From NCBI GenBank assembly GCA_963822145.1, contig CAWGGG010000004.1:1744426-1808425 (forward strand): a stretch of DNA of 64,000 bases. Direction: 5' to 3'. The position numbers were made by a program, and so were the translations under genes. Every line of letters starts with the position of its first letter. Position 1 is the first letter of the stretch. Positions 3,332-24,657 of the stretch are shown in pieces. The DNA comes from an uncultured Bacteroidales bacterium (GTDB taxonomy: Bacteria > Bacteroidota > Bacteroidia > Bacteroidales > UBA10428). The notes beneath the pieces are model-generated. The model saw only the letters and a program-made list of their open reading frames with translations, made no database searches and was not told the origin of the DNA.

Positions 3332-3404
3332 TTCTTATATATGTTTCTTGGCAGATACTTCAATCAGGATCCTAGCCTGACAACTGTCTGGTTCGGTTTC
3401 ATCC

Positions 3405-5762
3405 TCATTCGTATCTCAGCGCCTCCACGGGATTCCTGGTTGCAGCCCTGTATGATTGTACGCTCACCGTTATTACTGCCACTGCCACTGCAAGAGTTCC
3501 TGCCACCACAAACACCCACCAGCTTAATTCCGTCTTGTAGGCAAAATTTTGCAGCCACCGGTGCATGGCATACCACGCAATTGGACAGGCAATGACAAAT
3601 GCAAAGGCTACCCATTTGATAAAGTCTTTATTGAGCATTGCCATAATTTCAAAAGTCCGTGCACCATTCACCTTGCGGATGCCGATTTCTTTGGTGCGGC
3701 GTTCGGTCAAGAACACCGACAGTCCCACCAGACCCAGTATTGCAATGGAAATGGCAATGATCATACAATACACCAAAAGTGTCTGTACGTTTTCTTCGGA
3801 CCGGTACAGGTTGTTGTAACGGTCATTCAGGAACTCAAAGGAAAAAGTGTAGTCAGCAACATTGTATGCCTCCCAGGTTTTTTCGATGAAGGCCAGGGTG
3901 TTTTTTTTATCGATCGAGGCAATCCTAATAGAAACCAGATCAAAATCACTGGGATCATAATAAATGATAATCGGACTGATGGGGTTGTGCAGTGATTCAT
4001 AGTGGAAATCCTTCACAACGCCGATTACGCTTCCTTCTCGACCGCCATATTCAATCACCTGTCCGATGGACTCTTCGGGCGACTTCCATCCGATTTCCTT
4101 CACTGCCATTTCATTGATCAGGTAACCGAAATCACTGGCAATATTTTCGTGGAAATTCCGGCCGGCTAAAAGTTGAACCTTGTAGGTGGGTATAAACTGA
4201 TCATCTGTCCTGACATTCGCCAGCCTGAATCCCAGGGGAATCGCATTGCCTCCCGATATGACCCTGGCGCCATTGCTGTCCCAAAGCCCCGAGGAGGGTA
4301 CCCGTTTGGACCCGGATACAGTTAAAACGTTGGAATTCTTTAGCAGCTGTTGTTTAAAATCATCAAACTTTTGAAGTAACAAGGGTGTGACCGGTATTAT
4401 AACGATATTTTCCTTGTCGATCCCCAGCTCTTTATGATGCAGGTAGTTCAATTGCTTGGATACCAATAGGAACGAGATGATCAACGCAATAGAGACTACA
4501 AATTGAAAAACCACAAGGCCGCTCCGGAATGCTGTTTTTCCGAAACGGGAATCATAAGTCTTTGTTTTTCCCGGCCTGTACGATGATAAAATAACCATCG
4601 GATAAATGCCCGAAAGGATGCCTGTCAGCAAGGATAACACCACAAAACCGCCAACTAGAGCCAGGTTTTCAGTAAATTTAAAACTAAAGGAGTTTATAAA
4701 AAAGGCATTGAACAACGGCAGGGAAATTGAAGCCATATACATTGCAAGGATGAGCGCAACAAAACAAAACAATACCGACTCAGCCAGCAATTGCACAATG
4801 AGCCTTTTTTGGGATGCTCCGATGATCCTTTTTATGGTTGTATCCTTCATCTTTTTGGAATACATAGCCGCATTCAGGTTCATGAAGTTGATACTCCCCA
4901 GGATCAGGATCAGCAAGGCGATTGAGGTTAAAATATAAATATAGGAACGGCTGCTGTACCAGTTAAAATGAATATCCGTCAACCGTTCGAGCCTGATTTT
5001 TGTCCATTTGGTACCATTGTCCAGCTGCTTATCAATGAATGCGTCAAGTTTATTGTCGATATCCGCAGGCAGGAATGGTATCAGTGCAAACGTCTCGTAG
5101 TTGTTGCTGCCCCAGTCCTTTAACTCATCCGGGCCAACAGCAGCCTCCAGGGTACTGAAGGAAACCAGGAAATCGGGGTTAAAGTGGGTAGGTTGTTTCC
5201 ATCTTTTAAAAACCCCTGTGATCTCAAGGGTGTGCTTTCCACCGTTTTCATCTTTAAACTCCAGAGTCTTACCAATGGCATCCTGTTCAGGGAAGTATTT
5301 ATCCGCTGCCTCATCTGTAATAATAGCGGTGAGGGGACGTATCAGCAGGCTACTGTCGGCGGGCAATCCTTCGAATGTAAAAATTTTCAATACAGCAGGC
5401 TCTGCAAAGCATACTTTGTTTTCCTCCGTATTGTAATTGCCTGATGAAAACACCATGCCGGTGTGGTAAACCCGGGCAATTTGCTGGATGGCAGAAAATT
5501 CATTCTTGAGCAGGGGCGCTATTACAGCGGCCACATTGGGCAAATGCAGGTTCTCTGAACCGTTTTCATCATAAAAATAGCGGTGCACCCGGTAAATGTT
5601 ATGGCTATTTTCGTGGAATCCGTCATAACTCAGCTCGTTTTTTATCCATACGGTAATGACAATGACGCATACAAAGCCCAGTACCAAACCTGAAAGATTG
5701 ATCAAGGAGAAAAGCAGGTTTCGCTTAATATTTCTAATCATCGAGATTATGAATCTTTTCAT
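3405..5762 (-). CDS. ABC transporter permease, FtsX/MacB-type
   Basis: 785-aa ORF with the same architecture as 986..3331. Its last ~90 aa are identical to that paralogue. Confidence 0.85.
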   Translation of the reverse strand: MKRFIISMIRNIKRNLLFSLINLSGLVLGFVCVIVITVWIKNELSYDGFHENSHNIYRVHRYFYDENGSENLHLPNVAAVIAPLLKNEFSAIQQIARVYHTGMVFSSGNYNTEENKVCFAEPAVLKIFTFEGLPADSSLLIRPLTAIITDEAADKYFPEQDAIGKTLEFKDENGGKHTLEITGVFKRWKQPTHFNPDFLVSFSTLEAAVGPDELKDWGSNNYETFALIPFLPADIDNKLDAFIDKQLDNGTKWTKIRLERLTDIHFNWYSSRSYIYILTSIALLILILGSINFMNLNAAMYSKKMKDTTIKRIIGASQKRLIVQLLAESVLFCFVALILAMYMASISLPLFNAFFINSFSFKFTENLALVGGFVVLSLLTGILSGIYPMVILSSYRPGKTKTYDSRFGKTAFRSGLVVFQFVVSIALIISFLLVSKQLNYLHHKELGIDKENIVIIPVTPLLLQKFDDFKQQLLKNSNVLTVSGSKRVPSSGLWDSNGARVISGGNAIPLGFRLANVRTDDQFIPTYKVQLLAGRNFHENIASDFGYLINEMAVKEIGWKSPEESIGQVIEYGGREGSVIGVVKDFHYESLHNPISPIIIYYDPSDFDLVSIRIASIDKKNTLAFIEKTWEAYNVADYTFSFEFLNDRYNNLYRSEENVQTLLVYCMIIAISIAILGLVGLSVFLTERRTKEIGIRKVNGARTFEIMAMLNKDFIKWVAFAFVIACPIAWYAMHRWLQNFAYKTELSWWVFVVAGTLAVAVAVITVSVQSYRAATRNPVEALRYE
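3421..3692. repeat. 272-bp repeat, copy B (3' end of the permease gene), near-identical to 1002..1273
   Basis: See copy A. The offset between the copies is 2419 bp. Confidence 0.9.
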
Positions 5763-5857
5763 TTTTATATTGCAGTTAAAATTGATTGATCCATGTATAT
5801 TATCGGTTTTCTGGTCTTTAGCACCTCTTCTTCAGCGACTGCCGTTTGCCTTTCCCC

Positions 5858-6571
5858 CTATATCTCCTCCTTATCCCTGTAAACCACCTCCGCATTCCCT
5901 TTCATTTCCTCCGTAACAATCCTTCCGTCAAACAAATGAATGATGCGGTGCGCATAACTTGAATCCCTTTCTGAGTGGGTCACCATCACAATGGTGGTAC
6001 CTTCCCTGTTCAGGTCCGATAACAATTTCATTACTTCAATACCATTTTTAGAATCGAGGTTACCTGTGGGCTCGTCAGCAAGGACAAGCTTTGGCGCGAT
6101 CACCACGGCACGTGAAATTGCTACACGCTGCTGCTGGCCGCCTGAAAGCTGCTGGGGAAAATGTTTTCCCCGGTGACCGATCTTCATCCGTTCCAGGATG
6201 CTTTCAACCCTCTTTTTGCGTTGAGATTCCCTGATCCCCATATACACCAGGGGAAGTTCCACATTTTCAAAAACCGTTAATTCATCAATCAGGTTAAAAC
6301 TTTGAAAAACAAAACCAATATTCCCCTTTCGCATTTCGGTGCGCTGGCCTTCGTTAAGCGCTGAAACATCCCTATCATTAAAAAAGTACTTTCCTTTCGT
6401 TGGATTGTCAAGCAAGCCGATGATATTCAGCAGGGTTGATTTACCACAGCCCGATGGTCCCATTATTGCCACAAACTCGCCTTGGCTGACCTCCATGGTC
6501 ACATTGTTCAATGCTGTGGTTTCAACCTCGTCGGTGCGGAAAATCCTGGTGAGTTCCTTTGTTTTTATCAT
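5858..6571 (-). CDS. ABC transporter ATP-binding protein (MacB/LolD-type)
   Basis: 237 aa with Walker A GPSGCGKST, signature LSGGQQQRV and Walker B LVLADEPTGNLD. It is the first gene of the minus-strand operon and is followed by three permeases. Confidence 0.9.
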   Translation of the reverse strand: MIKTKELTRIFRTDEVETTALNNVTMEVSQGEFVAIMGPSGCGKSTLLNIIGLLDNPTKGKYFFNDRDVSALNEGQRTEMRKGNIGFVFQSFNLIDELTVFENVELPLVYMGIRESQRKKRVESILERMKIGHRGKHFPQQLSGGQQQRVAISRAVVIAPKLVLADEPTGNLDSKNGIEVMKLLSDLNREGTTIVMVTHSERDSSYAHRIIHLFDGRIVTEEMKGNAEVVYRDKEEI

Positions 6572-6619
6572 TGATTTTGTATAAAGTATTTATGCTTTAG
6601 CCCATTCAATTCCTTCACA

Positions 6620-6636
6620 TTCAAATCCGGTGCCAT
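6620..6636 (-). promoter_or_regulatory. Candidate sigma-54 (-24/-12) promoter for the ABC operon
   Basis: The minus strand reads aTGGCACCGGATTTGAA, which is TGGCAC-N5-TTGA at canonical spacing. The -12 element is GA rather than GC. It sits about 49 nt upstream of the ATG at 6571, and a sigma-54 enhancer-binding regulator is encoded divergently. Confidence 0.3.
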
Positions 6637-6780
6637 ACATGTAATTAACTCACTATTAAATAGATGAAAATAATATCAATAAAAAAGTGTAAAAAAATTG
6701 GCCTTCTTTTGTAAAATAATTGGACACTTTGACCGATCCGAGTTTAAGTTCAATACCTTTGATCAACAAGATCGTAAACG

Positions 6781-8142
6781 ATGCTTACGGGAAAAATACT
6801 TATTGTGGATGACAACAAGAGTGTACTGAGTGCACTGAAGTTGTTTTTACAGGGTGAATTTGAAATGGTTGAAACCATTGCCAGCCCGAACCTGATTATG
6901 GCAACGCTGGGTAAAAACGATTTTGACCTGGTATTGCTTGATATGAATTTCTCTACCGGCATCAATACCGGCAATGAGGGACTGTTTTGGCTGGGTGAAA
7001 TAAAAAAAGAGACTCCGACCACCGAAGTTGTGATGATCACGGCCTATGGTGATATTGAACTTGCCGTTAAGGCACTGAAACTGGGTGCGGCCGATTTTAT
7101 TGTCAAGCCCTGGGAGAATGTTAAACTGCTGGCCACACTGAAATCCACCCTGAAGCTGAGGCGGTCGAACATCAAGGTGGAAGAGCTCAGGCAAAGGGAA
7201 CAAAGTCTCAAATCTGAACTTAACCAGGAACAGCGTCCCATCGTTGGGTCATCACCTGGCATGCTGCAAATGATGCAGATGATTTCAAAGGTGGCCAGAA
7301 CCGATGCCAATGTGCTGATCACCGGGGAAAACGGCACGGGCAAAGAATTGGTGGCACGGGAAATTCACCGGAAATCGGACCGGCACGGTGAATTGCTGGT
7401 GACGGTTGACATGGGTGCCATCCCGGAGACCTTGTTTGAAAGCGAATTATTCGGCCATAAAAAAGGCTCATTTACAGATGCACATGAGGATCGCATAGGT
7501 AAATTCCAGCTTGCACAAAAAGGATCCCTTTTCCTTGATGAAATAGGTAACCTGCCCTTGTCACTTCAGTCGAAGCTTTTAACCACGCTGCAAAACCGAA
7601 CCATCATGCCGGTAGGTTCCAATCAAACTGTGGCCATCGATATCCGTCTGATATGTGCCACCAACTGTGACCTTGAACAATTCATCGTTGAACAGAAATT
7701 CAGGGAGGACCTGCTTTACCGGATCAACACCATTTGCATCGAGGTTCCACCGCTTCGGGAAAGGGGCCAGGATATTGAACTGCTGGCAACATTTTTCCTG
7801 AAATGTTTTGAAAAAAAGTACCGAAAGCCTGCACTCAAAATCAGTACTCAGGCCATGAATAAGCTGATGAAATATGCATGGCCGGGCAATGTGAGGGAAT
7901 TGCAGCATACCATTGAGAAGGCAGTAATCCTTAGCGATTCCCTTACACTTAAGGCGGAGGACTTTATTTTTAAGGCAGCCGGCCGGGTAGTAAATTCTCC
8001 TTTGCTGACCTTTGAAGAAATGGAAAAACAGATGATTGAGGCAGCCTTCGAAAAACACAACGGCAAGCATAATGCTGTAGCCAACCAACTGGGAATCTCA
8101 CGTCAAACCCTGTACAATAAAATGAAACGGTATGATTTATAA
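6781..8142 (+). CDS. Sigma-54-dependent response regulator (NtrC family: REC + AAA+ + Fis-type HTH)
   Basis: 453 aa. The receiver has DLVLLDMNF, and the AAA+ domain has Walker A GENGTGKE. ESELFGHKKGSFTDA is a GAFTGA-loop variant (GSFTDA). The C-terminal HTH is NAVANQLGISRQTLYNKMKRY. Confidence 0.9.
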   Translation: MLTGKILIVDDNKSVLSALKLFLQGEFEMVETIASPNLIMATLGKNDFDLVLLDMNFSTGINTGNEGLFWLGEIKKETPTTEVVMITAYGDIELAVKALKLGAADFIVKPWENVKLLATLKSTLKLRRSNIKVEELRQREQSLKSELNQEQRPIVGSSPGMLQMMQMISKVARTDANVLITGENGTGKELVAREIHRKSDRHGELLVTVDMGAIPETLFESELFGHKKGSFTDAHEDRIGKFQLAQKGSLFLDEIGNLPLSLQSKLLTTLQNRTIMPVGSNQTVAIDIRLICATNCDLEQFIVEQKFREDLLYRINTICIEVPPLRERGQDIELLATFFLKCFEKKYRKPALKISTQAMNKLMKYAWPGNVRELQHTIEKAVILSDSLTLKAEDFIFKAAGRVVNSPLLTFEEMEKQMIEAAFEKHNGKHNAVANQLGISRQTLYNKMKRYDL

Positions 8143-9481
8143 ATCGTTCAACCTCACCATTGTGATCCGCCTGATTGTTTTTGCGGTTACGGCGGCATGC
8201 CTGGGAATCGGGTTGTATCACCGGAATGTATTTGTTTCGGCACCACTGATCCTCCTTGTTCTGATCATCATGTTTGACCTGGTCTATTTCGTGAATGGGG
8301 TGAACCGCAAAGTGGCATTCTTTTTCGATGCGATCAGGAATGAGGATACCACCCTTCACTATGCTGAAAATGTTAAACCCAGTTCGCTGCATGCTTTGCA
8401 CCTAAGTCTGAACAGGCTTAACCAGCATATTGCCGACATTAAATTAATCAGCGCCCATAATGAGAAGTTCTTTCATGAGATGTTGAAGTCTTCTGCCACC
8501 GGACTCATGGCGGTGGATGAAAACGGGTATGTTGAACAGGTAAATGATTCCGCTCTTGAATTCATTGGAATGCCACACATCGCACACACAGATCTGCTGA
8601 GGCAAAAAAGCGGTGAATTGTATGAAATGCTGATGCAAATCGGTCCGGGACAGAGCCGGACAATTAAAGTCTTACAGGGCAACGAGCTTCGCTTGTTATC
8701 ATTGAAAGTGGCATTGTTGCATTTTGGTGAGAAGAAATACAGGCTGTATTCCATTTCTGATATCAAATCCGAATTGGAGGAGCATGAAGTGGATTCATGG
8801 CAAAAACTGATCAGGGTAATGACCCATGAGATCATGAATTCTATAGCACCGATCACTTCCCTGAGCAGCACGCTTACTGCAATATTTGTAAAGGATAGTC
8901 TGCCATTGCCCGTCTCTGAGGTCACTGAAAAGCACATAGCAAATATCCTTCAGGGATTGGATGTGATTGAAAGTACAGGCAGAGGCCTGATGCATTTTGT
9001 GGAGGATTACAGACAACTGACCAAAATACCAAAACCTGTCTTTAAATCCATTGATACCATCAAATGGTTAAACGCGCTTCAATTGTTGATGAAATTCAGG
9101 CTGGATGAAGAAAATGTTAAACTCAGCATTCAGGCGAAGGGGTCGTTGCATGAACTGATCGGTGATGAGAAACTGCTGAACCAGGTAATGATTAATGTGC
9201 TGAATAATGCCATGGATGCATTAAAAAACGTGGCGCAGAAAAAGATAGTGATCAGTCTGTCGGAAAGCACAACCGGTAGATTTAAAATCAGCATTACCGA
9301 TAATGGAAAGGGGATTGCCCCGGATGAAATTGACAAGGTGTTCATCCCCTTCTATACTACCAAGGAAAATGGTTCGGGCATCGGATTAAGCATATCCCGT
9401 AAAATCATGCGGTTGCACAAAGGCAGTATTTCCGTATTTTCAAAGCAGGGAGAGCAAACTACAATAGTATTGAGCTTCTAG
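8132..9481 (+). CDS. Sensor histidine kinase (TM + PAS-like + HisKA + HATPase)
   Basis: 449 aa with N-terminal TM helices. Motifs are H-box MTHEIMNSIAPI, N-box NVLNNAMDAL, G1 DNGKGI and G2 GSGIGLSIS. The start overlaps the regulator's stop by 11 nt. Confidence 0.85.
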   Translation: MIYKSFNLTIVIRLIVFAVTAACLGIGLYHRNVFVSAPLILLVLIIMFDLVYFVNGVNRKVAFFFDAIRNEDTTLHYAENVKPSSLHALHLSLNRLNQHIADIKLISAHNEKFFHEMLKSSATGLMAVDENGYVEQVNDSALEFIGMPHIAHTDLLRQKSGELYEMLMQIGPGQSRTIKVLQGNELRLLSLKVALLHFGEKKYRLYSISDIKSELEEHEVDSWQKLIRVMTHEIMNSIAPITSLSSTLTAIFVKDSLPLPVSEVTEKHIANILQGLDVIESTGRGLMHFVEDYRQLTKIPKPVFKSIDTIKWLNALQLLMKFRLDEENVKLSIQAKGSLHELIGDEKLLNQVMINVLNNAMDALKNVAQKKIVISLSESTTGRFKISITDNGKGIAPDEIDKVFIPFYTTKENGSGIGLSISRKIMRLHKGSISVFSKQGEQTTIVLSF

Positions 9482-12177: not shown

Positions 12178-12403
12178 TGATATTTCAAATTGGATTTTGG
12201 ATCATAAATGTAGGAAAATTTTTTTGGATAACCGGATTTTGCCTTATTGGTCATTTCCGGCTTGCCTGCCGATTATTTCCAAAAAAACAAGATAATGATT
12301 TTTTTATTCTGATACATCACTAAATTTGGCTGACCAAAATTCCATAGAATATTCCTGATCTGACCCAACCTGCAGAAAATGGTGAATCATAAACATCGAT
12401 GCA

Positions 12404-12643
12404 ATGAATATTGAAACCAAGGAAAAAGTGTTAAGGGTTGTCAGTCGGGTTACCGGAAGGAATATTAAGGAAATAAATCTTGAAAGTGACCTGAAAACGC
12501 AGCTTTCAGTTGATTCGGTTCAGATCGTTGAATTATTCGCGGTCCTCGAAAAGGAACTGGGAGTTGAACTGCCACTCCGGTTAATGACAGTAAAAACCGG
12601 CAGGGAATTTCTAATGATACTTGAAGAGGAGCTTCATAAATGA
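12404..12643 (+). CDS. Acyl carrier protein
   Basis: 79 aa. LSVDSVQIVEL is a phosphopantetheine-attachment-type DSx motif in a four-helix-sized protein. Confidence 0.75.
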   Translation: MNIETKEKVLRVVSRVTGRNIKEINLESDLKTQLSVDSVQIVELFAVLEKELGVELPLRLMTVKTGREFLMILEEELHK

Positions 12644-12687
12644 CCCTGGAGTCCATATTTGAGTTTTAAACTAATATTGGATTACAG

Positions 12688-14055
12688 ATGAATGATTTCC
12701 GGCGCATAACGCAGCTTGACTTTAAGTATGTAATATTTAAAGGCAAAAGGTTTGATAAACGGTTGATTTCTGAAGCCATTGATCACCTGGTAAAATTCCT
12801 GCGTACAAATAACCAGTCCACTTCGCCGTTTATCTTGTTGACTGCCTATAATCATGTAAAAACGATCATAGCGTATTATGCAATTATCAAAGCAGGTAAG
12901 ATACCTGCATTGCTTGATCCGGGTCATCGATCAATCGAACTTACCGAAATCATCGAGGATATTGATCCGGCCGCAATCATTTTCCTGAACTCAAGTGAAA
13001 TTGGTTTCACCTATGAGGAGGAAATTATTTTCAGAAAGCCGAAACCTGGCTTCCTGATTACATCCGATTTAGAAGATGTCTGTACACTGGCTTTCACCAA
13101 TGCAGAAGATGGTTATTCGAAAGGTGCTATGCTTACCGAAAAAAATCTCTTATCGGAAATTCGGGCCCTGGTTATTACCAACAGGTTAACAACCAGCTCC
13201 GTTACCTGTGCATTGTTGCCGTTTTCTCACTTATATGGTTTGGTTCAGGGAATACTGTTACCAACCCATTCCGGTTCAACAGCTGTGATTATTGAGATGG
13301 ATATACTCCGGATCAGCGAAATAATAAACGAGATCCGGCAAAATCATGTAACCCATCTTTATACAGTACCCTCGCTGTATTATTTGCTCAGCAAAGTGAC
13401 CGGAATTGATCACCTGGTGAAGGGTATTCTTGAATTTTACTCAGGTGGCATTCAGTTATCCCCTTTTATTTATGAAAGCTTCTTTAAGAAAACAAACCGG
13501 ACGATAAGAGAGGGATATGGACTTACCGAATGTTCCCCGGGTGTTGGTCTGGACTATGAAAATGAAAAGCCGGTCGTATCCAGTTTCGGGAAACCAATGC
13601 CAGGTTGTGACATCAAAATACTGGATGAAAATAATAAGGAATGTTTACCTGGCCAGGACGGCGAAATATGCATCAGCGGAGACATGGTGTTCAAAGGCTA
13701 TTTCAATCATGAAAAAGCTACCGGCAGCGTGCTGAGGAATGGCTGGCTCCATTCCGGCGATTACGGAAAAAAAGACCCGCAAGGGAATATTTACTTCTGC
13801 GGCCTGAAAAAGAACATGATCAATGTGGCCGGAAACAATGTATACCCCAGAAAATTGGAACGTCTTTTAAAAATAAACAAAAGGGTGGCCGAAGTTGAAG
13901 TATTTCATGAAGAATCTGTGTTGCAGGGCCAGGTTGTGGGCGCCAGGCTCCAGCTGCATAAAAAATCAGAAAGTGCCCAGAAGGAGGTGAAAAACTGGTG
14001 CTATCAGAACATAAATAACATTATTCTTCCGAAGATTTGGTTGTTTGAACAATAA
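12688..14055 (+). CDS. Adenylate-forming (ANL superfamily) enzyme, putative acyl-ACP synthetase/ligase with atypical core motifs
   Basis: 455 aa. A5 is EGYGLTE, A7 is WLHSGDYG and the A8-like motif is GLKKNMINVAGNNVYPRKLE. The P-loop/A3 position reads FTNAEDGYSKG instead of T[SG]GTTGxPKG. The protein ends ...ILPKIWLFEQ and has no A10 GK. Confidence 0.7.
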   Translation: MNDFRRITQLDFKYVIFKGKRFDKRLISEAIDHLVKFLRTNNQSTSPFILLTAYNHVKTIIAYYAIIKAGKIPALLDPGHRSIELTEIIEDIDPAAIIFLNSSEIGFTYEEEIIFRKPKPGFLITSDLEDVCTLAFTNAEDGYSKGAMLTEKNLLSEIRALVITNRLTTSSVTCALLPFSHLYGLVQGILLPTHSGSTAVIIEMDILRISEIINEIRQNHVTHLYTVPSLYYLLSKVTGIDHLVKGILEFYSGGIQLSPFIYESFFKKTNRTIREGYGLTECSPGVGLDYENEKPVVSSFGKPMPGCDIKILDENNKECLPGQDGEICISGDMVFKGYFNHEKATGSVLRNGWLHSGDYGKKDPQGNIYFCGLKKNMINVAGNNVYPRKLERLLKINKRVAEVEVFHEESVLQGQVVGARLQLHKKSESAQKEVKNWCYQNINNIILPKIWLFEQ

Positions 14056-14066
14056 AAACTCAGCAT

Positions 14067-15275
14067 ATGATAAAAATGGGAAATGGATTGGGCGAATTAT
14101 ATGCTGCGGTTAAGATCCTTCAGCAGAATGGTTGTGTATTTCAATATTATGAAGATACTGAGTATAACGGAAGGACTGTTATCGTTAATAACCGTGAACT
14201 CCTGCATCTGGCAAACTGCAGTTATCTCGGTCTTGAAAAACATCCTTCCCTGATATCTGAGGCGACAGAAGCGCTGAGGCGGTATGGTACCCAAAACTCC
14301 ATGTCGAGGGCTATGTTATCTTCTCCCCTTTATAAGTCATTGGAACAACTGTTGGGAGAAGTTTTCCCTGGTTATCAGGCAGTCTTCCCCACCACTACAT
14401 TGGCCCATTGCTCAGCACTTCCCTTGTTGATCCAGGATAAGGATGCCATTATACTGGATGCACATGTGCATAACAGTGTACGCATGGCAAGCCAGTTATG
14501 CAAAGCCAGTGGCACCTTTGTTGTCTTATCCAGGCACAATGATATGGATCATGTTAAGTACCTGACCTACCGGCTTAGGAAAGAGGGATATGCCAGAATC
14601 TGGTATTGCGCCGACGGGTTGTACAGCATACATGGCAATTTCTGTGATGTAACAGGTTTAGTAAAGTTACTGGATACTGTAGACAACTTTTATGCCTATG
14701 TGGATGATGCGCACAGTACAGGCTGGTATGGTAAGCATGGCTGCGGATATGTTGCTTCACAACATGGTCTTCATGAAAAAATGATCTTGGTTGAATCGTT
14801 TGCCAAATCAATGGCTGCCAACGGGGCCGTGATCATTTCCTCAGACCGGGAGGTTGCGGAATACCTCAAATATACCGGACAAACCATGATCTTTTCCGGT
14901 CCCATTCAACCTGCGACATTAGGTGCAATAAACGCAAGCCTTAAAATTCATTTGTCGGATGAACTTCCCGGGCTGCAGCATGAGTTGGTGGAATTAATTG
15001 AGTTCTTCATTGCGAAAAGCAATGATCTTCAGCTGCCGATTCAGACCAGGGACATAACACCCATACAGCTTTTCAGAATCGGCAGTATGGATAGGATGTT
15101 CAGGGTATTGGTTCAGCTGATAGACAAAGGATTTCTTCCCATGACCGCCGGTTATCCCGCCGTAGCCAAGGGAGAGGAAGGTATTAGGGTAAATATCACC
15201 CGGCATCTGACAAAAAACGATCTAAACAGTTTCCTGGAGACTTTAAGGAACATATTTGACCTGGAAAAAGATTAA
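14067..15275 (+). CDS. PLP-dependent alpha-oxoamine synthase family enzyme (AONS/KBL/SPT/CqsA-like)
   Basis: 402 aa with DAHVHNSV (His stacking on PLP), YVDDAHSTG (Asp/His) and ESFAKSMAANG (Schiff-base Lys). Confidence 0.8.
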   Translation: MIKMGNGLGELYAAVKILQQNGCVFQYYEDTEYNGRTVIVNNRELLHLANCSYLGLEKHPSLISEATEALRRYGTQNSMSRAMLSSPLYKSLEQLLGEVFPGYQAVFPTTTLAHCSALPLLIQDKDAIILDAHVHNSVRMASQLCKASGTFVVLSRHNDMDHVKYLTYRLRKEGYARIWYCADGLYSIHGNFCDVTGLVKLLDTVDNFYAYVDDAHSTGWYGKHGCGYVASQHGLHEKMILVESFAKSMAANGAVIISSDREVAEYLKYTGQTMIFSGPIQPATLGAINASLKIHLSDELPGLQHELVELIEFFIAKSNDLQLPIQTRDITPIQLFRIGSMDRMFRVLVQLIDKGFLPMTAGYPAVAKGEEGIRVNITRHLTKNDLNSFLETLRNIFDLEKD

Positions 15276-15301
15276 AGTATACCGGTTAGAAACAATGCAG
15301 T

Positions 15302-16636
15302 GTGATGCCAAGAAAGATAAGAAAAATAGCGCTGATTAATCCCAAAACACCGCTTCAACAGGAAAATCCCGGGATATTTGAAATGTTTCAAAGAAACAGG
15401 GAAAGACTCAAGCCATGGCTTGCTCCTCCCTTGAATTTGTTGACCATTGCAGCACTCACCCCGGATAGTATTGAAGTATGTGTTATTGATGAACACTTCG
15501 AGAGCATTGATTTCACCTCGGAATATGATCTGATTGGCATTACAGCAATGACACAACAGGCTTTCAGGGCTTACGAAATCGCGGAGATATTCAGAAACAA
15601 GAATGTTCCCGTTGTCATGGGAGGTATTCATGCCTCCGTGCTTCCTGAAGAAGCCCTGCAGCATACTGATACGGTTTTCGTTGGAGAAGCTGAAGAGCTT
15701 TGGAAAGTGTACCTCGATGAATTGCAGGAAGGCAAAGAAAGGAAAATATATAAGTCCGATGGATTTCTTGATCTTCGAAAATCACCTGTACCAAAATACA
15801 ATCTGATTAATTATAACGCATATAAGGACAATGATAACTATTTCAACTATATCCCTGTGCAGGCAACACGCGGTTGCCCGCATGATTGCGTTTTCTGTGC
15901 TGTTTCCAAGCTATATGGAAAAAAAATCAGAAAAAAAACTGTAGACCAGGTGGTCAGGGATATAGAACAAATCCAACTTCACGTCGGTGATTCCCTCATT
16001 CTTTTTGCTGATGATAATTTATTTGTGGATAAAAGGTTTAGCAAAAATCTTTTAAAAGCGTTAATCCCATTGAAGATAAAATATTTTGCCCAGACGGATA
16101 TCAGCATTGCCGAGGATGAGGAACTGCTCAGTCTGGCTTACAGGAGTGGTTGTCATATCGCCTTCATTGGCCTCGAAAGCCTCAGGGAAGAAAGTTTGGG
16201 AGAGATAAACCGTAACAAATGGAAAATGAAGCAGGTGGAAAAATACACCCGTAGCATAAGAAAAATACAAGACAGTGGCATTGTGGCCTTTGGTGCCTTT
16301 GTCATCGGATTTCAGCACGATGATCTTTCAACCTTTGATGAGATTAGAGATTTCACTGTTCAGAACCATATGCCGGGACAATTCACTTTGGCCACTCCCA
16401 TACCCGGCAGCAATTTATATCAGGAATTGCAGCAGGAAGGAAGACTATATCATGATGTTTTCTGGAACAAATGCAATTTTTACAATCTGGTTTATACGCA
16501 TGAAAATCTTACAAAAAAGGAGGCAGAGGATGCATTGATCCGCCTGTATGAGGATGTTTTTAATGATGAAAATACTTTAAAACGCTTTATTCACATGAAA
16601 AATATCTACAAAACCCTTCCTGAAAGATGGATCTGA
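15302..16636 (+). CDS. B12-binding-domain radical SAM protein (class B)
   Basis: 444 aa. The N-terminal region has a Rossmann-like B12-binding layout (IALINPK...VVMGGIHAS), followed by CX3CX2C (GCPHDCVFC). Confidence 0.85.
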   Translation: MMPRKIRKIALINPKTPLQQENPGIFEMFQRNRERLKPWLAPPLNLLTIAALTPDSIEVCVIDEHFESIDFTSEYDLIGITAMTQQAFRAYEIAEIFRNKNVPVVMGGIHASVLPEEALQHTDTVFVGEAEELWKVYLDELQEGKERKIYKSDGFLDLRKSPVPKYNLINYNAYKDNDNYFNYIPVQATRGCPHDCVFCAVSKLYGKKIRKKTVDQVVRDIEQIQLHVGDSLILFADDNLFVDKRFSKNLLKALIPLKIKYFAQTDISIAEDEELLSLAYRSGCHIAFIGLESLREESLGEINRNKWKMKQVEKYTRSIRKIQDSGIVAFGAFVIGFQHDDLSTFDEIRDFTVQNHMPGQFTLATPIPGSNLYQELQQEGRLYHDVFWNKCNFYNLVYTHENLTKKEAEDALIRLYEDVFNDENTLKRFIHMKNIYKTLPERWI

Positions 16637-16836
16637 TCAACCGAAGTTATAGGATAAATTAGCGGAAATTGGAACTTTAAAGCTCAAATATTGAAGTTTT
16701 TCCCACGAGCATCCTCCCGGAAGCTTTTGGATAAACAAGTACTAAAAAAATAAATTGGCGGCCGCTGGTCACATCCAAACTTAATGGTATTGGTTACGTA
16801 TATATTTATGTTCATTTGTATAAAAGGGCTAAACCA

Positions 16837-19638
16837 ATGGGCAGGTCAAATCGCTGCTATATGATCCTCCTCGCTCTCATTTTTCTGATGAAAAATGCAG
16901 GTGCATCAGACACACTTTATATTGACAGTGCGAAAAATATCTTGGAATTGAAAGATTGTATTTATGTCATGGAAGACGTACAAAAATCTTTGGATATAAG
17001 CACAATTTTAAAGAATGCAACCAGTTACCCCTATAAATTTTATAGCAATTCGGAACTTAATTTCGACTATTCCAGGTCAACTTTTTGGATCAGATTCACC
17101 ATTAAGAATAATTCCAGCGTTCAGCAAGATTATTTATTGGAAATAGCCAATCCAGATCTTGATTGCATAAACTTCTCTGAAACAAAGGAGGATAGTTTAA
17201 TTCGTACAGTGCAGACAGGCGAATTGTTCGATGTTAATACAAGAGAAGTATTTAACAGAAATTACCTGTTTAGTATTTCCCTGTTACCGGCAGAATTTCG
17301 AACTTACTATCTGTCTGTGAACAATAATGGCCATCCTTGTTCAATTCCCTTAAAATTAAAAGAAAAAACCTTTTTTGAAAGGAATAACATTGTCTCAGAT
17401 ACTTTTAACTGGTCTATTTATGGATTGCTCATTTTTATTGTATTATTCAACATTTATCTCTACTGGGCTTTAAAGGATAAGGTCAGTCTGTATTACTCGC
17501 TTAGCCTGTTATTTGCAATATTGACCTTCATGCACTATGATGGCTATTTCTACCTGTTAAATCCTTCAACAATCGTAGAAAATCTCAAGTGGGTAAATCC
17601 CAGTCTTTACAGTGTATTTCTGTTGCAGTTCACACAATCGTTTGTTCCCGTTCATATGAGCAACCGAATGATTAACAGATTCCTGAACCCATTGAAGCTT
17701 TTTATTTTGCTAGCACCATTTACTTATACCCTGAGATTTCCTTTTTCGTTGATTGCCGATATTGGTATACCACTGTTTGTGCTGGTGGTGTTTGTGATTA
17801 TTATCAGAATGGCCTGGAAATCATACAGCAAGGACTATTTGCCAATTCAGTTGTTTGTTTTTGCCTATCTGGCTGTATTTATTGGTCTTTCATTTCATCT
17901 GCTAAAAGAAATGAATTTCATTTCAGCAAGTTATCCCGTGATCAATTCAATCAAAATCGGGTTTATGGTTCAGAATATCCTGTTGACTATTGCTGTTCTT
18001 GAACGTTTCCGGGTAACTCAGAGAAATGACAAGCAGATTATCCAGAACAGTCTGGTAAAAATAGAAAGACAAAATAAAGAATTGGAGATCATCAATACTG
18101 AACTCGAAAAGCTCTCTATTGTGGCAAGCGAAACAGACAACAGTATCGCCATTTATGATAATAATGGAAGGCTGGAATGGGCCAATTCAGGTTTTGAGAA
18201 GCTGTATGAAGTGACTATTAATGACCTTATCAGAAAAAATAGGGATAATATTGAGAAGATCATTCCCAATGTAAAAGTCAGCAAATATGTTGATGCGTGC
18301 AGGAAAACAAGGTCGCCAGTGATTTTTGAAACCCGAATCACTTATAGAAACAGGAAAGAAATGTGGATCCAGACCACACTTTCACCTTTTATCCGGTCGG
18401 ATGAAATTTCAAAGATCATATCTATCGATTCGGACATTACAAACCTTAAAAACTACGAACAAGAGCTGGAAACAGCCAAAACGAAAGCTGAAGAAAGCGA
18501 CCGGCTTAAGACTGCCTTCCTGCATAACATCTCCCATGAAATACGCACTCCCATGAATGCCATTGTGGGATTTTCGGGCTTTTTGAACGATCCAACCCTG
18601 GAATATGAAGAGCGAAAGCAATATTCAGATATCATTGTTCAAAGCACAAACCAATTGCTTTGCATCATCACAGATATTATCAGTATTGCTTCCATTGAGG
18701 CAGGACAGGAAAGAATCATTGAAAAACAGATATATCTGAATAGAACCCTGAGCTATATTCACGAACAGTTTCTCTTGAAAACCGTTGAGAAAGAAATCAA
18801 CCTGGAATTAAAATTAAATGTATCACATCAGGAAACTGCCATAATAACGGATGAAACAAAGCTGGTGCAAATACTTACCAATTTGATCGAGAATGCCTTG
18901 AAATTCACTACAAAAGGTCATGTGAGCTTTGGATATGAGATGAAAGACAATGAAATTGAGTTCTTTGTTGAAGATACAGGCATTGGCATCGATCCTTCCA
19001 TGCATGATGAAATTTTTAAACGATTCCGACAGGTTGAAAACTCGCTTTCGAGGCAGTTCGGAGGTTCAGGTTTAGGCTTATCCATCTCAAAGGCCTATGT
19101 TGAATTACTGGGTGGCAGAATCTGGGTAAAATCCGGGCTCGAAAAAGGATCTACTTTCTTTTTTACATTACCATTCAATAAAGCTGAACCTGCTGCCCAA
19201 TCGGAAAAGAAACCAAATCAGAACGCCCATAAGGGAAACCTCCCAAACCTCATCACTGTGCTTATAGCAGAAGATGAGGACTCTAACTTCAAACTGCTGA
19301 AAGAATTCCTGTCGACCCTAAAACTGAATATTATCCGCGCCAATAATGGTATCGAGGCGATTGAAGCATGCAGATCAAACCAGATTGACCTTGTCTTAAT
19401 GGATATGAGAATGCCTGAAATGGATGGATACGAAGCCACCAGACGAATACGGCAATTTTTACCCCATTTGCCCATAATTGCACAGACAGCCTATTCCAGT
19501 GAAAGAGATGTAGAAAAGGCCATGGAATGTGGGTGCAACGAATTCATCAGTAAGCCTTTAAATAGGGAACTGTTGATTTCCATGATTTATGAACTGGTGT
19601 TAATTCACTCACAGAAAAAAGATTTTCCCGGCTACTGA
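16837..19638 (+). CDS. Hybrid sensor histidine kinase/response regulator with a 7TMR-DISM-type N-terminus
   Basis: A signal sequence and an extracytoplasmic DISMED2-like domain (STFWIRFTIKNNS...YLLEIANP) are followed by about 7 TM helices, a PAS domain and a kinase core. Kinase motifs are H-box FLHNISHEIRTPMNAI, NLIENALKFT, EDTGIGI and GGSGLGLSI. The receiver has DLVLMDMRMPEMDG. The ORF track starts at TTG 16816; the in-frame ATG at 16837 is preferred. Confidence 0.85.
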   Translation: MGRSNRCYMILLALIFLMKNAGASDTLYIDSAKNILELKDCIYVMEDVQKSLDISTILKNATSYPYKFYSNSELNFDYSRSTFWIRFTIKNNSSVQQDYLLEIANPDLDCINFSETKEDSLIRTVQTGELFDVNTREVFNRNYLFSISLLPAEFRTYYLSVNNNGHPCSIPLKLKEKTFFERNNIVSDTFNWSIYGLLIFIVLFNIYLYWALKDKVSLYYSLSLLFAILTFMHYDGYFYLLNPSTIVENLKWVNPSLYSVFLLQFTQSFVPVHMSNRMINRFLNPLKLFILLAPFTYTLRFPFSLIADIGIPLFVLVVFVIIIRMAWKSYSKDYLPIQLFVFAYLAVFIGLSFHLLKEMNFISASYPVINSIKIGFMVQNILLTIAVLERFRVTQRNDKQIIQNSLVKIERQNKELEIINTELEKLSIVASETDNSIAIYDNNGRLEWANSGFEKLYEVTINDLIRKNRDNIEKIIPNVKVSKYVDACRKTRSPVIFETRITYRNRKEMWIQTTLSPFIRSDEISKIISIDSDITNLKNYEQELETAKTKAEESDRLKTAFLHNISHEIRTPMNAIVGFSGFLNDPTLEYEERKQYSDIIVQSTNQLLCIITDIISIASIEAGQERIIEKQIYLNRTLSYIHEQFLLKTVEKEINLELKLNVSHQETAIITDETKLVQILTNLIENALKFTTKGHVSFGYEMKDNEIEFFVEDTGIGIDPSMHDEIFKRFRQVENSLSRQFGGSGLGLSISKAYVELLGGRIWVKSGLEKGSTFFFTLPFNKAEPAAQSEKKPNQNAHKGNLPNLITVLIAEDEDSNFKLLKEFLSTLKLNIIRANNGIEAIEACRSNQIDLVLMDMRMPEMDGYEATRRIRQFLPHLPIIAQTAYSSERDVEKAMECGCNEFISKPLNRELLISMIYELVLIHSQKKDFPGY

Positions 19639-23955: not shown

Positions 23956-24657
23956 ATGAATTGCATTATTATTGATGATGACCTGATGTCCAGACGGATT
24001 GTCGAAGAGTTCATTTCACGAACCGATCAGCTTAGATTCCTTGCTTCCTACGAGAATGCCGTGGATGCCATTAATGCCTTTAACGGGGATGAGGATATTG
24101 ATTTGATCTTCCTCGATATTGAAATGCCGGAAATGAGCGGCATCGACTTCCTCGAAACACTCACCAACCCACCCCAGATCATTATCATTTCCTCCAAAGA
24201 CAAATATGCCCTCGAAGCTTTCAACTATGATGTAACTGATTACCTGCTCAAACCCATTTCCTACAGCCGCTTCTTCAAAGCCATCAACAAAGCCAATGTG
24301 CGGTTCAAAACCAAGGTCGACACCAAGGACAATGAGATCTTTATAAAGAAGAACTCTGCCCTGGTGAGACTGAAATATGAAGACATCCTGTGGGTAGAAG
24401 CTCTTGAAAATTATGTGATCTTCAACACGTTCCACGAAAAGTTTACCATTCATTTTACTATGAAAGCAGTTGAAACCAAACTGCCCAGCAACAAATTCAC
24501 CCGTGTTCACCGTTCCTTCATCGTAAATACCAGTCGGATCAACATCATCGAGGACAATTCGGTCATCATCAAAGTACAGGAAGGATCCAAATCCATTCCT
24601 ATCGGGAAGTCCTATAGAGACAAACTTCTCAAGGACATAAACCTGATCATTAAATAA
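23956..24657 (+). CDS. LytTR family response regulator
   Basis: 233 aa. The receiver has IDLIFLDIEMPEMSG and the C-terminal LytTR domain has FTRVHRSFIVN. No kinase gene is adjacent. Confidence 0.85.
   Translation: MNCIIIDDDLMSRRIVEEFISRTDQLRFLASYENAVDAINAFNGDEDIDLIFLDIEMPEMSGIDFLETLTNPPQIIIISSKDKYALEAFNYDVTDYLLKPISYSRFFKAINKANVRFKTKVDTKDNEIFIKKNSALVRLKYEDILWVEALENYVIFNTFHEKFTIHFTMKAVETKLPSNKFTRVHRSFIVNTSRINIIEDNSVIIKVQEGSKSIPIGKSYRDKLLKDINLIIK

Follow-up and report, generated by a model that had tools for sequence, protein, structure and literature searches.

A carrier protein, ligase and alpha-oxoamine synthase module linked to a sensor kinase in uncultured Bacteroidales: a possible make-and-sense circuit

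Genes and features of the locus

We analyzed a 64-kb stretch of a contig from an uncultured Bacteroidales bacterium (hereafter the window; positions are window coordinates unless a related locus is named), which carries a cluster of genes for an acyl carrier protein (ACP), an adenylate-forming ligase of the ANL superfamily (ANL), an alpha-oxoamine synthase (AOS) and a radical S-adenosylmethionine enzyme (rSAM). The open reading frame (ORF) listing reproduced the four intact, co-directional frames of the initial annotation, with intergenic gaps of 44, 11 and 26 nt. That annotation took the four genes to be an orphan cluster. The genes are real, but the conserved unit also includes a hybrid sensor histidine kinase (HK) lying just beyond the stretch then described, and the four ORFs and the kinase constitute one conserved five-gene module that was probably acquired en bloc. 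The features are as follows.

12321 to 12328, + strand: candidate -7 promoter box TAAATTTG, fitting the Bacteroidetes-type TAnnTTTG (direct sequence reading)
12404 to 12643, + strand: ACP, 79 aa (Pfam PP-binding, 1.2e-10)
12688 to 14055, + strand: ANL adenylate-forming ligase, 455 aa (Pfam AMP-binding, 3.5e-48)
14067 to 15275, + strand: AOS, 402 aa (Pfam Aminotran_1_2, 5.8e-22)
15305 to 16636, + strand: rSAM with a B12-binding-type N-terminal domain (Pfam B12-binding, 3.2e-11; Radical_SAM, 2.9e-13)
16637 to 16836, + strand: spacer of 200 nt between rSAM and kinase, free of any terminator-like hairpin
16837 to 19638, + strand: hybrid sensor HK, 933 aa (Pfam domains)

The promoter candidate TAAATTTG lies 76 nt 5' of the ACP start codon, inside a 226-nt intergenic region, and its pattern is what we take to be the Bacteroidetes sigma-A promoter -7 consensus. 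Scans for sigma-70 and terminator consensus sequences gave counts that matched those of shuffles, the sigma-70 consensus being uninformative for a Bacteroidetes-type genome. For rSAM, a GTG at 15302 would give 444 aa, and the public gene call takes the ATG at 15305 (443 aa). Spacers between rSAM and kinase in orthologous loci measure 81-204 nt in locus coordinates.

Within the region 12200-19600, the block from ACP to HK has a GC content of 0.40, against 0.50-0.51 for the upstream genes for a glycoside hydrolase of family GH2 and a metallo-beta-lactamase (MBL)-fold hydrolase and 0.47 for the GH3 gene downstream, past the kinase. The minimum (0.34-0.36) falls in the sensor region of the kinase, where coding for transmembrane (TM) helices partly accounts for the low value. 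The low GC is compatible with horizontal gain of ACP through kinase as a single piece.

An AOS outside the known families

Translation of the AOS gene shows the motifs DAHVHNS (His135), DDAH (Asp213 and His216) and SFAKSMA (Lys247, at 14805-14807), in agreement with the catalytic set first reported (DAHVH, DDAH and the FAKS lysine). Residues H135, S187, D213, H216, S244 and K247 align with H133, S179, D204, H207, T233 and K236 of Escherichia coli BioF, and all six are invariant in 20 family members. With an Aminotran_1_2 fold and the full catalytic set, the protein falls within the alpha-oxoamine synthase superfamily of pyridoxal 5'-phosphate enzymes (fold type I).

Curated NCBIfam models placed it in none of the families of that superfamily. 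The best match was NF005697 (PRK07505, "hypothetical protein") at 244.3 bits against a cut-off of 342, and the second-best was the bioF model TIGR00858 at 179.5 bits against 426.45. Models for 2-amino-3-ketobutyrate CoA ligase (KBL; NF005394, 130 bits versus 460; TIGR01822, 114 versus 493), for serine palmitoyltransferase (SPT; NF047600, 144 bits versus 640; NF047599, 124 versus 500; NF047603, 82 versus 670), for 5-aminolevulinate synthase (ALAS; 91 bits versus 339) and for the CqsA-type autoinducer synthase (NF005526, 82.9 bits versus 428) scored lower still. A neighbor-joining tree that took in E. coli BioF and Kbl, true PRK07505 members and other relatives gathered the window AOS and its orthologues into one tight, separate clade, with identities of about 25% to E. 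coli BioF, 20% to E. coli Kbl and about 25% to PRK07505 proper. The nearest solved structure was Alb29 of Streptomyces albogriseolus (PDB 8XHA, E = 7.5e-32); this closest structure and the best model, PRK07505, nevertheless share only about 25-30% identity with the window AOS. Membership of the BioF, KBL, SPT, ALAS, CqsA and PRK07505 families was rejected since all curated cut-offs failed, with BioF, Kbl and PRK07505 standing apart in the tree as well. Clustering inside the BioF or KBL clades, which the initial annotation had named as the outcome that would count against it, was thus seen by neither approach. By its sequence, the AOS belongs to a distinct, uncharacterised clade.

True PRK07505 members form a separate clade with other gene neighbours. 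The PRK07505-type set comprised L032, L034-L036 and L038 (Klebsiella, Winslowiella, Raoultella and Erwinia) together with L033, L037 and L039, and the six AOSs scanned among them (L032-L034, L036, L037 and L039) scored 374-481 bits. The AOS of L032 (Klebsiella michiganensis) adjoins a major facilitator superfamily (MFS) transporter, that of Saccharospirillum a TauD-type dioxygenase and an ATP-grasp enzyme, and that of a Bdellovibrionales metagenome-assembled genome (MAG) a TauD-type dioxygenase and an O-methyltransferase; these loci look like another uncharacterised small-molecule pathway. Elsewhere, Xenococcus sp. PCC 7305 (L024:9923-14171) encodes an AOS 43% identical to that of the window with a C-terminal GNAT fusion (816 aa), followed by a fatty acyl-AMP ligase (FAAL), and L031 is similar but frameshifted.

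Carrier protein, ligase and radical SAM enzyme

The phosphopantetheine-attachment serine of the ACP, Ser38, lies at 12515-12517 in the motif LSVDSV/SVDSVQI, which contains the DSV motif pointed out previously, and it is invariant across 14 orthologues. All housekeeping-ACP models in NCBIfam scored below cut-off for the window ACP, which is predicted to be a dedicated (private) carrier of the module. The second ORF, assigned to the ANL superfamily from the outset, matches AMP-binding (3.5e-48) and passes no curated NCBIfam model; its best matches there are fatty-acid-CoA ligase models, far under cut-off. Its nearest PDB structures are acyl/aryl-CoA ligases, which it resembles more than nonribosomal peptide synthetase adenylation domains. 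The enzyme always stands beside ACP and AOS in related loci and is presumed to be an acyl-ACP ligase that charges the neighbouring ACP.

The fourth ORF has an N-terminal B12-binding-type Rossmann domain (PF02310) followed by a radical SAM core (PF04055), the class B arrangement recognized in the initial annotation, with the CxxxCxxC cluster motif CPHDCVFC at 15875-15898. It comes near no NCBIfam cut-off, the best score being that of HpnJ (97 bits versus 578). An AlphaFold model built on 29 homologues (pLDDT 92.9) has AprD4 as its top structural match (TM-score 0.75), followed by TsrM, MgmA, OxsB, CysS and TokK. All of these share the Rossmann/B12-type domain and the radical SAM core, with TM-scores of 0.62-0.75 on the query and sequence identities of 13-18%, and the modelled two-domain class B architecture can be taken as real. 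Methylation by the rSAM cannot be assumed because AprD4 is a non-methylating diol dehydratase, so the earlier generalization that class B enzymes mostly methylate is unsafe here. The substrates of CysS and TokK are pantetheine-tethered, according to the titles of their PDB entries. Absent from some orthologous loci, the rSAM is, on this comparison, an accessory enzyme with a putative tailoring role.

Conservation of the module and its sensor kinase

More than 120 proteins belong to the AOS family at an identity of at least 50%, nearly all of them metagenomic, and a scan of one genome per GTDB species yielded 39 loci (numbered with the prefix L); all but one of the relatives come from MAGs or metagenomes. 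Adjacent ACP, ANL and AOS genes were found in about 22 Bacteroidales/Bacteroidetes MAGs and one MAG of candidate division KSB1, at AOS identities of 47-72%, and 20 of these loci were analyzed in detail. ACP, ANL and AOS form the invariant set (20 of 20). The rSAM occurs in most loci and is missing in L011, L012, L017, L018/L043, L044 and L054, so that a lack of co-occurrence in related genomes, the other outcome that the initial annotation had named as counting against it, was not seen either, the neighbourhood being conserved across many genomes with the rSAM as its variable part. The arrangement is not due to chance, because the three genes recur together in all 20 loci and the rSAM in most. 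Flanking genes differ: the module is bordered by GH2/MBL and GH3 genes in the window and by GH88 and GH95 genes in L040. None of the other window genes tested recurs beside the module in related loci, the only matches being weak ones to the ABC ATPase in L003 and L008.

The window kinase has, in order and all above Pfam cut-offs, 7TMR-DISMED2, 7TMR-DISM 7TM, PAS, HisKA, HATPase and REC domains, with the H-box SHEIRTP (His567, at 18535-18537); Pfam detected no Hpt or DNA-binding domain in it. The combination of DISMED2, 7TM, HisKA, HATPase_c and REC identifies it as a 7TMR-DISM hybrid histidine kinase. Orthologues 44-62% identical to it lie directly 3' in L001-L006, L008, L011, L012, L022 and L028, and divergently upstream in L016/L017. 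Of the 20 loci, 17 have a kinase core no more than 3.5 kb from the module, a count that does not amount to 17 independent events because the loci are phylogenetically related. The other three loci are all cut by contig ends, and L021 shows a kinase N-terminus at the cut. As background, the remaining 155 kb of flanks held 3 kinase cores. Every informative locus keeps an HK, through at least four gene orders and three kinds of polytopic sensor, and each linked kinase is a membrane sensor that spans the bilayer with 5-7 TM helices. The informative part of this pattern is the retention of the kinase across gene orders, strands and sensor types. The arrangements are listed below.

Architecture A: ACP-ANL-AOS-rSAM-HK, with a 7TMR-DISM hybrid kinase (window, L001-L008, L021, L022, L028)
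Architecture A': as A, without rSAM and with a kinase lacking REC (L011, L012)
Architecture B: divergent HK, then AOS-ACP-ANL (L016, L017)
Architecture B': AOS-ACP-ANL-rSAM, short-chain dehydrogenase, HK (L053)
Architecture C: divergent upstream 6-TM HisKA-HATPase kinase; degenerate AOS paralogue, then ACP-ANL-AOS with or without rSAM (L015, L018, L020, L044, L054)
Architecture C, extra genes between kinase and paralogue: DnaA_C-like helix-turn-helix (HTH) protein and cytochrome P450 (gene calls read in L043, L044 and L054 only)
Architecture D: divergent 5-TM PAS hybrid kinase, then ANL-rSAM-ACP-AOS (L019, the candidate division KSB1 MAG)

The kinase cores of architecture C are 41-44% identical to that of the window kinase. 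Distant AOS relatives also have sensors nearby: in L023 (Saprospiraceae, 39-43% identity) the AOS is followed by an HK with 5-6 TM helices, and in L030 (a gammaproteobacterial MAG) an OmpR-type response regulator, the AOS and a membrane HK stand in that order. A search for homologues of the sensor domain returned 3 proteins, and the corresponding contig scan one irrelevant locus, the back-translated patterns being too degenerate.

Several loci showed variations of their own. The ANL and/or AOS frames are split in three long-read Bacteroidales MAGs labelled MFD (L002, L022 and L028), with the rSAM and/or kinase intact, which may come from errors in sequencing or assembly or from genuine decay of the enzyme genes. 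In architecture C, a degenerate AOS paralogue, 20-28% identical, lies directly 5' of the ACP (L013/L042:749-1987, L015:7177-8262, L018:7105-8211, L020:7126-8283, L044:6954-8135 and L054:5079-6269). Of the five paralogues aligned, all have Asn at the position of BioF H133, four have lost H207, and one has Arg in place of the catalytic Lys. Eukaryotic SPT has a non-catalytic subunit, LCB1, and the degenerate paralogue could likewise be a non-catalytic partner subunit, judging from these substitutions. Flanks of L043, L044 and L054 encode a cytochrome P450, a small DnaA_C-type HTH protein, a TPR-like protein of 607-622 aa and a SiaC-family (PF09345) protein, with an ACP phosphodiesterase (PF04336) a few kb away; a baeRF-family protein occurs in L043 and L054. 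The P450 of these three rSAM-less loci may be an oxygen-dependent stand-in for the radical SAM step. L053 is the only locus with a short-chain dehydrogenase (SDR; adh_short, 12720-13532, - strand), which sits between the rSAM and the 7TMR-DISM kinase and could reduce the 3-keto group of an aminoketone.

Relatives of the radical SAM enzyme outside Bacteroidota

Homologues of the rSAM at 46-50% identity occur without an AOS, and in all five such contexts that were read they are accompanied by ANL, ACP and a sensor kinase.

L049, 5033-15314 (cultured Desulfotignum phosphitoxidans DSM 13687): PilZ-methyltransferase protein, ANL, ACP, rSAM, MASE8 hybrid kinase, REC-HD-GYP regulator
L050: ANL, ACP, rSAM and a second rSAM, fused MASE8-HK-REC-HD-GYP protein; no PilZ-methyltransferase protein called
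L051: parts as in L049, with kinase and HD-GYP output fused
L055/L056: parts as in L051
L052: REC-HK, ACP, ANL, cyclase-like protein, rSAM, Ser/Thr-kinase/AAA/TPR/GAF/HATPase protein

Four of the five contain a MASE8 kinase whose output is HD-GYP, either fused to the kinase or encoded next to it as a response regulator. The PilZ-methyltransferase protein (1089-1174 aa) was found in L049, L051 and L055/L056; in L055 it comprises three PilZ stretches, a LuxD-like acyl-ACP acyltransferase domain and a methyltransferase domain. The LuxD-like domain (Acyl_transf_2, PF02273) scored 37 bits in L055 against a cut-off of 20, fell below it in L051 (18.1) and was undetected in L049. The AOS-less contexts therefore define a broader conserved set consisting of ANL, ACP, B12-domain rSAM and sensor kinase, with two alternative off-loading enzymes. 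The gene set of L049 and related contigs seems to be undescribed and appears to be wired into cyclic di-GMP (c-di-GMP) signalling.

Surrounding genes and rejected partners

Upstream of the module, positions 986-9481 hold two MacB/FtsX-type permease genes and an ABC ATPase on the - strand and, beside them, an overlapping pair encoding an NtrC-type sigma-54 response regulator and a histidine kinase (+ strand, 6781-9481). This is an independent two-component/efflux unit that is not conserved with the module. The idea that the pair, 4 kb upstream, might be a LuxO-like partner was rejected: related loci do not keep the pair near the module (the sole other match is a 34% paralogue in L001), and it stands as its own unit beside the MacB-type ABC genes. 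A LytTR response regulator at 23956-24657, 4.3 kb 3' of the hybrid kinase, was also rejected as a partner; it is probably unrelated, as it was found in no related locus.

The initial annotation's statement that no ketoreductase, N-acyltransferase or bioA/D/B genes adjoin the cluster was confirmed in the window. The genes bioA/B/D/C are absent among the ORFs scanned from 986 to 27744 and from related loci, tdh is not adjacent to the AOS in the window, and neither a ketoreductase nor an N-acyltransferase was found as a neighbour of the module there.

A possible make-and-sense circuit

We tentatively read the module as a make-and-sense (autoinducer-type) circuit in which an ACP-bound acyl group is tailored, released as an alpha-aminoketone and sensed by the linked kinase, an account we find credible, if slightly more open to doubt than to belief. 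The ANL would adenylate a carboxylic acid, most likely a fatty acid, and charge Ser38 of the private ACP, after which the B12-domain rSAM would alter an unactivated carbon of the tethered acyl chain, by methylation or another radical transformation. The AOS, through Lys247, would then join the acyl-ACP to an amino acid in a decarboxylative Claisen condensation that gives off CO2, freeing holo-ACP and a neutral, lipophilic alpha-aminoketone. The polytopic 7TM sensor of the neighbouring hybrid kinase would detect this compound in the membrane, or else a derivative of it that arises spontaneously or by reduction. The logic put forward in the initial annotation, of loading on the ACP, condensation and tailoring, fits all of the evidence, with the chemistry being inferred.

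By function, the closest known systems are CqsA/CqsS of Vibrio and LqsA/LqsS of Legionella, and the resemblance is not one of family membership. There, as in the module, a gene of the AOS superfamily lies beside a gene for a polytopic sensor HK (a hybrid one in Vibrio), an arrangement of synthase and membrane sensor that the window reproduces with its kinase 200 nt downstream. Those systems use a lipophilic ligand, an aminoketone or hydroxyketone whose precursors are an acyl thioester and an amino acid, and TM helices detect it (PMC3376566). CqsS and LqsS bind hydrophobic autoinducers through the same polytopic topology as the linked kinases (PMC3376566), and the 6-TM kinases with HisKA and HATPase domains in L015, L018, L020, L044 and L054 share the overall topology of CqsS/LqsS. 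The proposed circuit would be parallel in function, with another AOS clade, a private ACP/ligase pair and another receptor. Unlike the CqsA systems, the module adds a private ACP, a ligase and often a B12-domain rSAM, its AOS lies outside the CqsA family, the receptor proposed for the window is of the 7TMR-DISM kinase type and carries DISMED2 as its periplasmic domain, and the hosts are anaerobic Bacteroidales rather than gamma- or betaproteobacteria. The ligands of the 7TMR-DISM family are, to our knowledge, mostly unknown.

Several observations weigh against a signalling function. The AOS scores nearer to BioF-type than to CqsA-type models, and the known AOS autoinducer synthases take acyl-CoA directly, without an ACP or a ligase. 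The DISMED2 periplasmic domain is usually discussed as carbohydrate-binding-like, and in two genomes glycoside hydrolase genes surround the module. In the window, the module has no linked exporter, Hpt protein or cognate response regulator. The chemical steps, the identities of both substrates and the direction of the relation between enzymes and kinase are all inferred. Synteny gives linkage rather than direction, so that the kinase could regulate the pathway instead of sensing its product, and the PilZ/HD-GYP wiring of the relatives could likewise mean that the kinase controls the enzymes; the relatedness of the loci, noted above, further tempers the linkage count. Finally, the triad of ACP, ligase and AOS is a hallmark of proteobacterial sphingolipid synthesis (PMC9386255).

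This last point bears most directly on the alternative that the product is a specialised envelope aminolipid or sphingoid-like base, with the rSAM modifying its chain and the kinase monitoring the envelope or environment and controlling the pathway, which we consider possible but doubtful. In Rhodobacteria, SPT is accompanied by the carrier AcpR and an acyl-CoA/ACP synthetase, the same three-protein logic of ligase, private ACP and AOS-family enzyme (PMC9386255), and in the window dedicated ACP and ANL genes likewise lie directly upstream of the AOS. Several B12-domain rSAM families act on lipids, with HpnJ, HpnR and "lipid biosynthesis B12-binding/rSAM" among the weak matches of the window enzyme; polytopic kinases can sense membrane state; and the HD-GYP output and PilZ-enzyme fusion of Desulfobacterota suggest c-di-GMP control of enzyme activity by the kinase. 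Unlike the Rhodobacteria set, however, the module fails all SPT models (82-144 bits versus cut-offs of 500-670) and has no linked reductase or ceramide synthase, an rSAM and a kinase being linked instead. Its conserved partners include no ketoreductase, N-acyltransferase (ceramide synthase) or head-group enzyme, the single SDR being that of L053. The patchy distribution, unrelated flanks and atypical GC are unlike a core envelope pathway, and the window hybrid HK has neither a DNA-binding output nor a linked operon regulator.

Of the three kinds of product initially considered, a small signal molecule agrees better with the comparative data than a structural aminolipid does. We favour a signal because the sensor is the only partner kept wherever the flank allows a check, because a reductase, N-acyltransferase, head-group enzyme or exporter is not among its conserved genes, and because the module is patchy, mobile-looking and compositionally distinct.

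An unlikely alternative casts the module as a compact biosynthetic cluster whose product is a bioactive secondary metabolite, for instance an alkyl-aminoketone with antimicrobial activity or the pyrazine or pyrrole that forms from it, with the kinase acting as a regulator specific to the pathway that answers an external cue. The nearest solved AOS, Alb29, comes from a Streptomyces natural-product pathway, CysS and TokK with their pantetheine-bound substrates are among the structural neighbours of the rSAM, and true PRK07505 AOSs adjoin MFS, TauD, O-methyltransferase and ATP-grasp genes. The combination of ligase, ACP and tailoring enzyme is moreover a common starter-unit logic of natural-product clusters. 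In those of the JamABC/CylABC type, a free-standing ACP receives a fatty acid from an ANL ligase, and the tethered chain is changed at an unactivated carbon by a tailoring enzyme before hand-over. The module differs in that tailoring would be by an anaerobic B12-domain rSAM rather than a desaturase or halogenase, and hand-over would be to an AOS rather than a polyketide synthase. Against this alternative, the module has no conserved transporter, resistance gene or additional assembly enzyme, and signalling fits better than defence chemistry because the sole partner retained in every flank open to a check is a sensor kinase, of three or more sensor types.

That the AOS is simply a primary-metabolism paralogue of BioF or KBL, its gene adjacency incidental, is highly improbable and on the comparisons made here effectively refuted: the bioF model gives the second-best NCBIfam score (179.5 bits) and E. 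coli BioF accepts pimeloyl-ACP, but that score is far under the cut-off of 426, identity is 25% to BioF and 20% to Kbl in a separate clade, no bioA/B/D or tdh genes are neighbours, and the order of ACP, ANL and AOS is kept over 47-72% AOS identity amid non-conserved flanks.

A wider class of lipid-derived signals

Returning to the make-and-sense reading, a broader proposal, which we regard as speculative and rather unlikely in its full extent, is that the window carries a single branch of an undescribed class of signalling systems that spans phyla of anaerobes and uses lipid-derived compounds for cell-cell (or self-) signalling. Such systems would combine an ANL, ACP and rSAM "signal synthase" with off-loading by an AOS or a LuxD-like acyltransferase/methyltransferase and readout by a polytopic sensor kinase. 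The AOS would off-load the chain as an aminoketone in Bacteroidales and candidate division KSB1, and the LuxD-like acyltransferase/methyltransferase would off-load it as a fatty ester in Desulfobacterota and others; the readers would be a 7TMR-DISM kinase, a 6-TM kinase or MASE8 with HD-GYP output. Both off-loading chemistries would therefore yield small, neutral fatty derivatives beside a sensor, which would resemble diffusible signals such as CAI-1/LAI-1 (PMC3376566), the diffusible signal factor (DSF; PMC4504480) and 3-OH-MAME, which is made by PhcB and sensed by PhcS (PMC8578825).

In the DSF (RpfB/RpfF/RpfC/RpfG) and Phc (PhcB/PhcS) systems, as proposed for the module, the signal has its origin in the metabolism of acyl-ACP or fatty acids, and its receptor is a polytopic hybrid kinase. 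The AOS-less relatives share an HD-GYP response-regulator output with RpfG (PMC4504480), and the methyltransferase-containing protein of three of their contexts parallels PhcB, the maker of a fatty-acid methyl ester (PMC8578825). Unlike DSF and Phc, the module has no RpfF-type crotonase and no PhcB orthologue, and the window has an AOS rather than a thioesterase or methyltransferase, and no HD-GYP; a crotonase domain was not found in any module gene of the window or related loci. The Dickeya Vfm system was also considered as a match; the terms searched in the Vfm paper returned no radical SAM or oxononanoate (AOS) mention. Full-text literature searches returned no description of the module or of the wider association of ANL, ACP, rSAM and kinase.

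The hypothesis is directly testable, since a relative exists in the cultured D. phosphitoxidans DSM 13687 and the Bacteroidales enzymes, being small and soluble, lend themselves to reconstitution. We know of no endogenous lipid-type autoinducer with a cognate receptor that is established for Bacteroidota or for most strict anaerobes. If the signalling reading is true, aminoketone-type signalling would extend to anaerobic Bacteroidales, the 7TMR-DISM receptor would gain a candidate ligand, signal biosynthesis would gain a radical SAM step, and the module would be joined to a broader family that is connected with c-di-GMP turnover in Desulfobacterota. The chemistry would be new either way, as it involves an uncharacterised AOS clade together with a putatively ACP-directed B12-domain rSAM.

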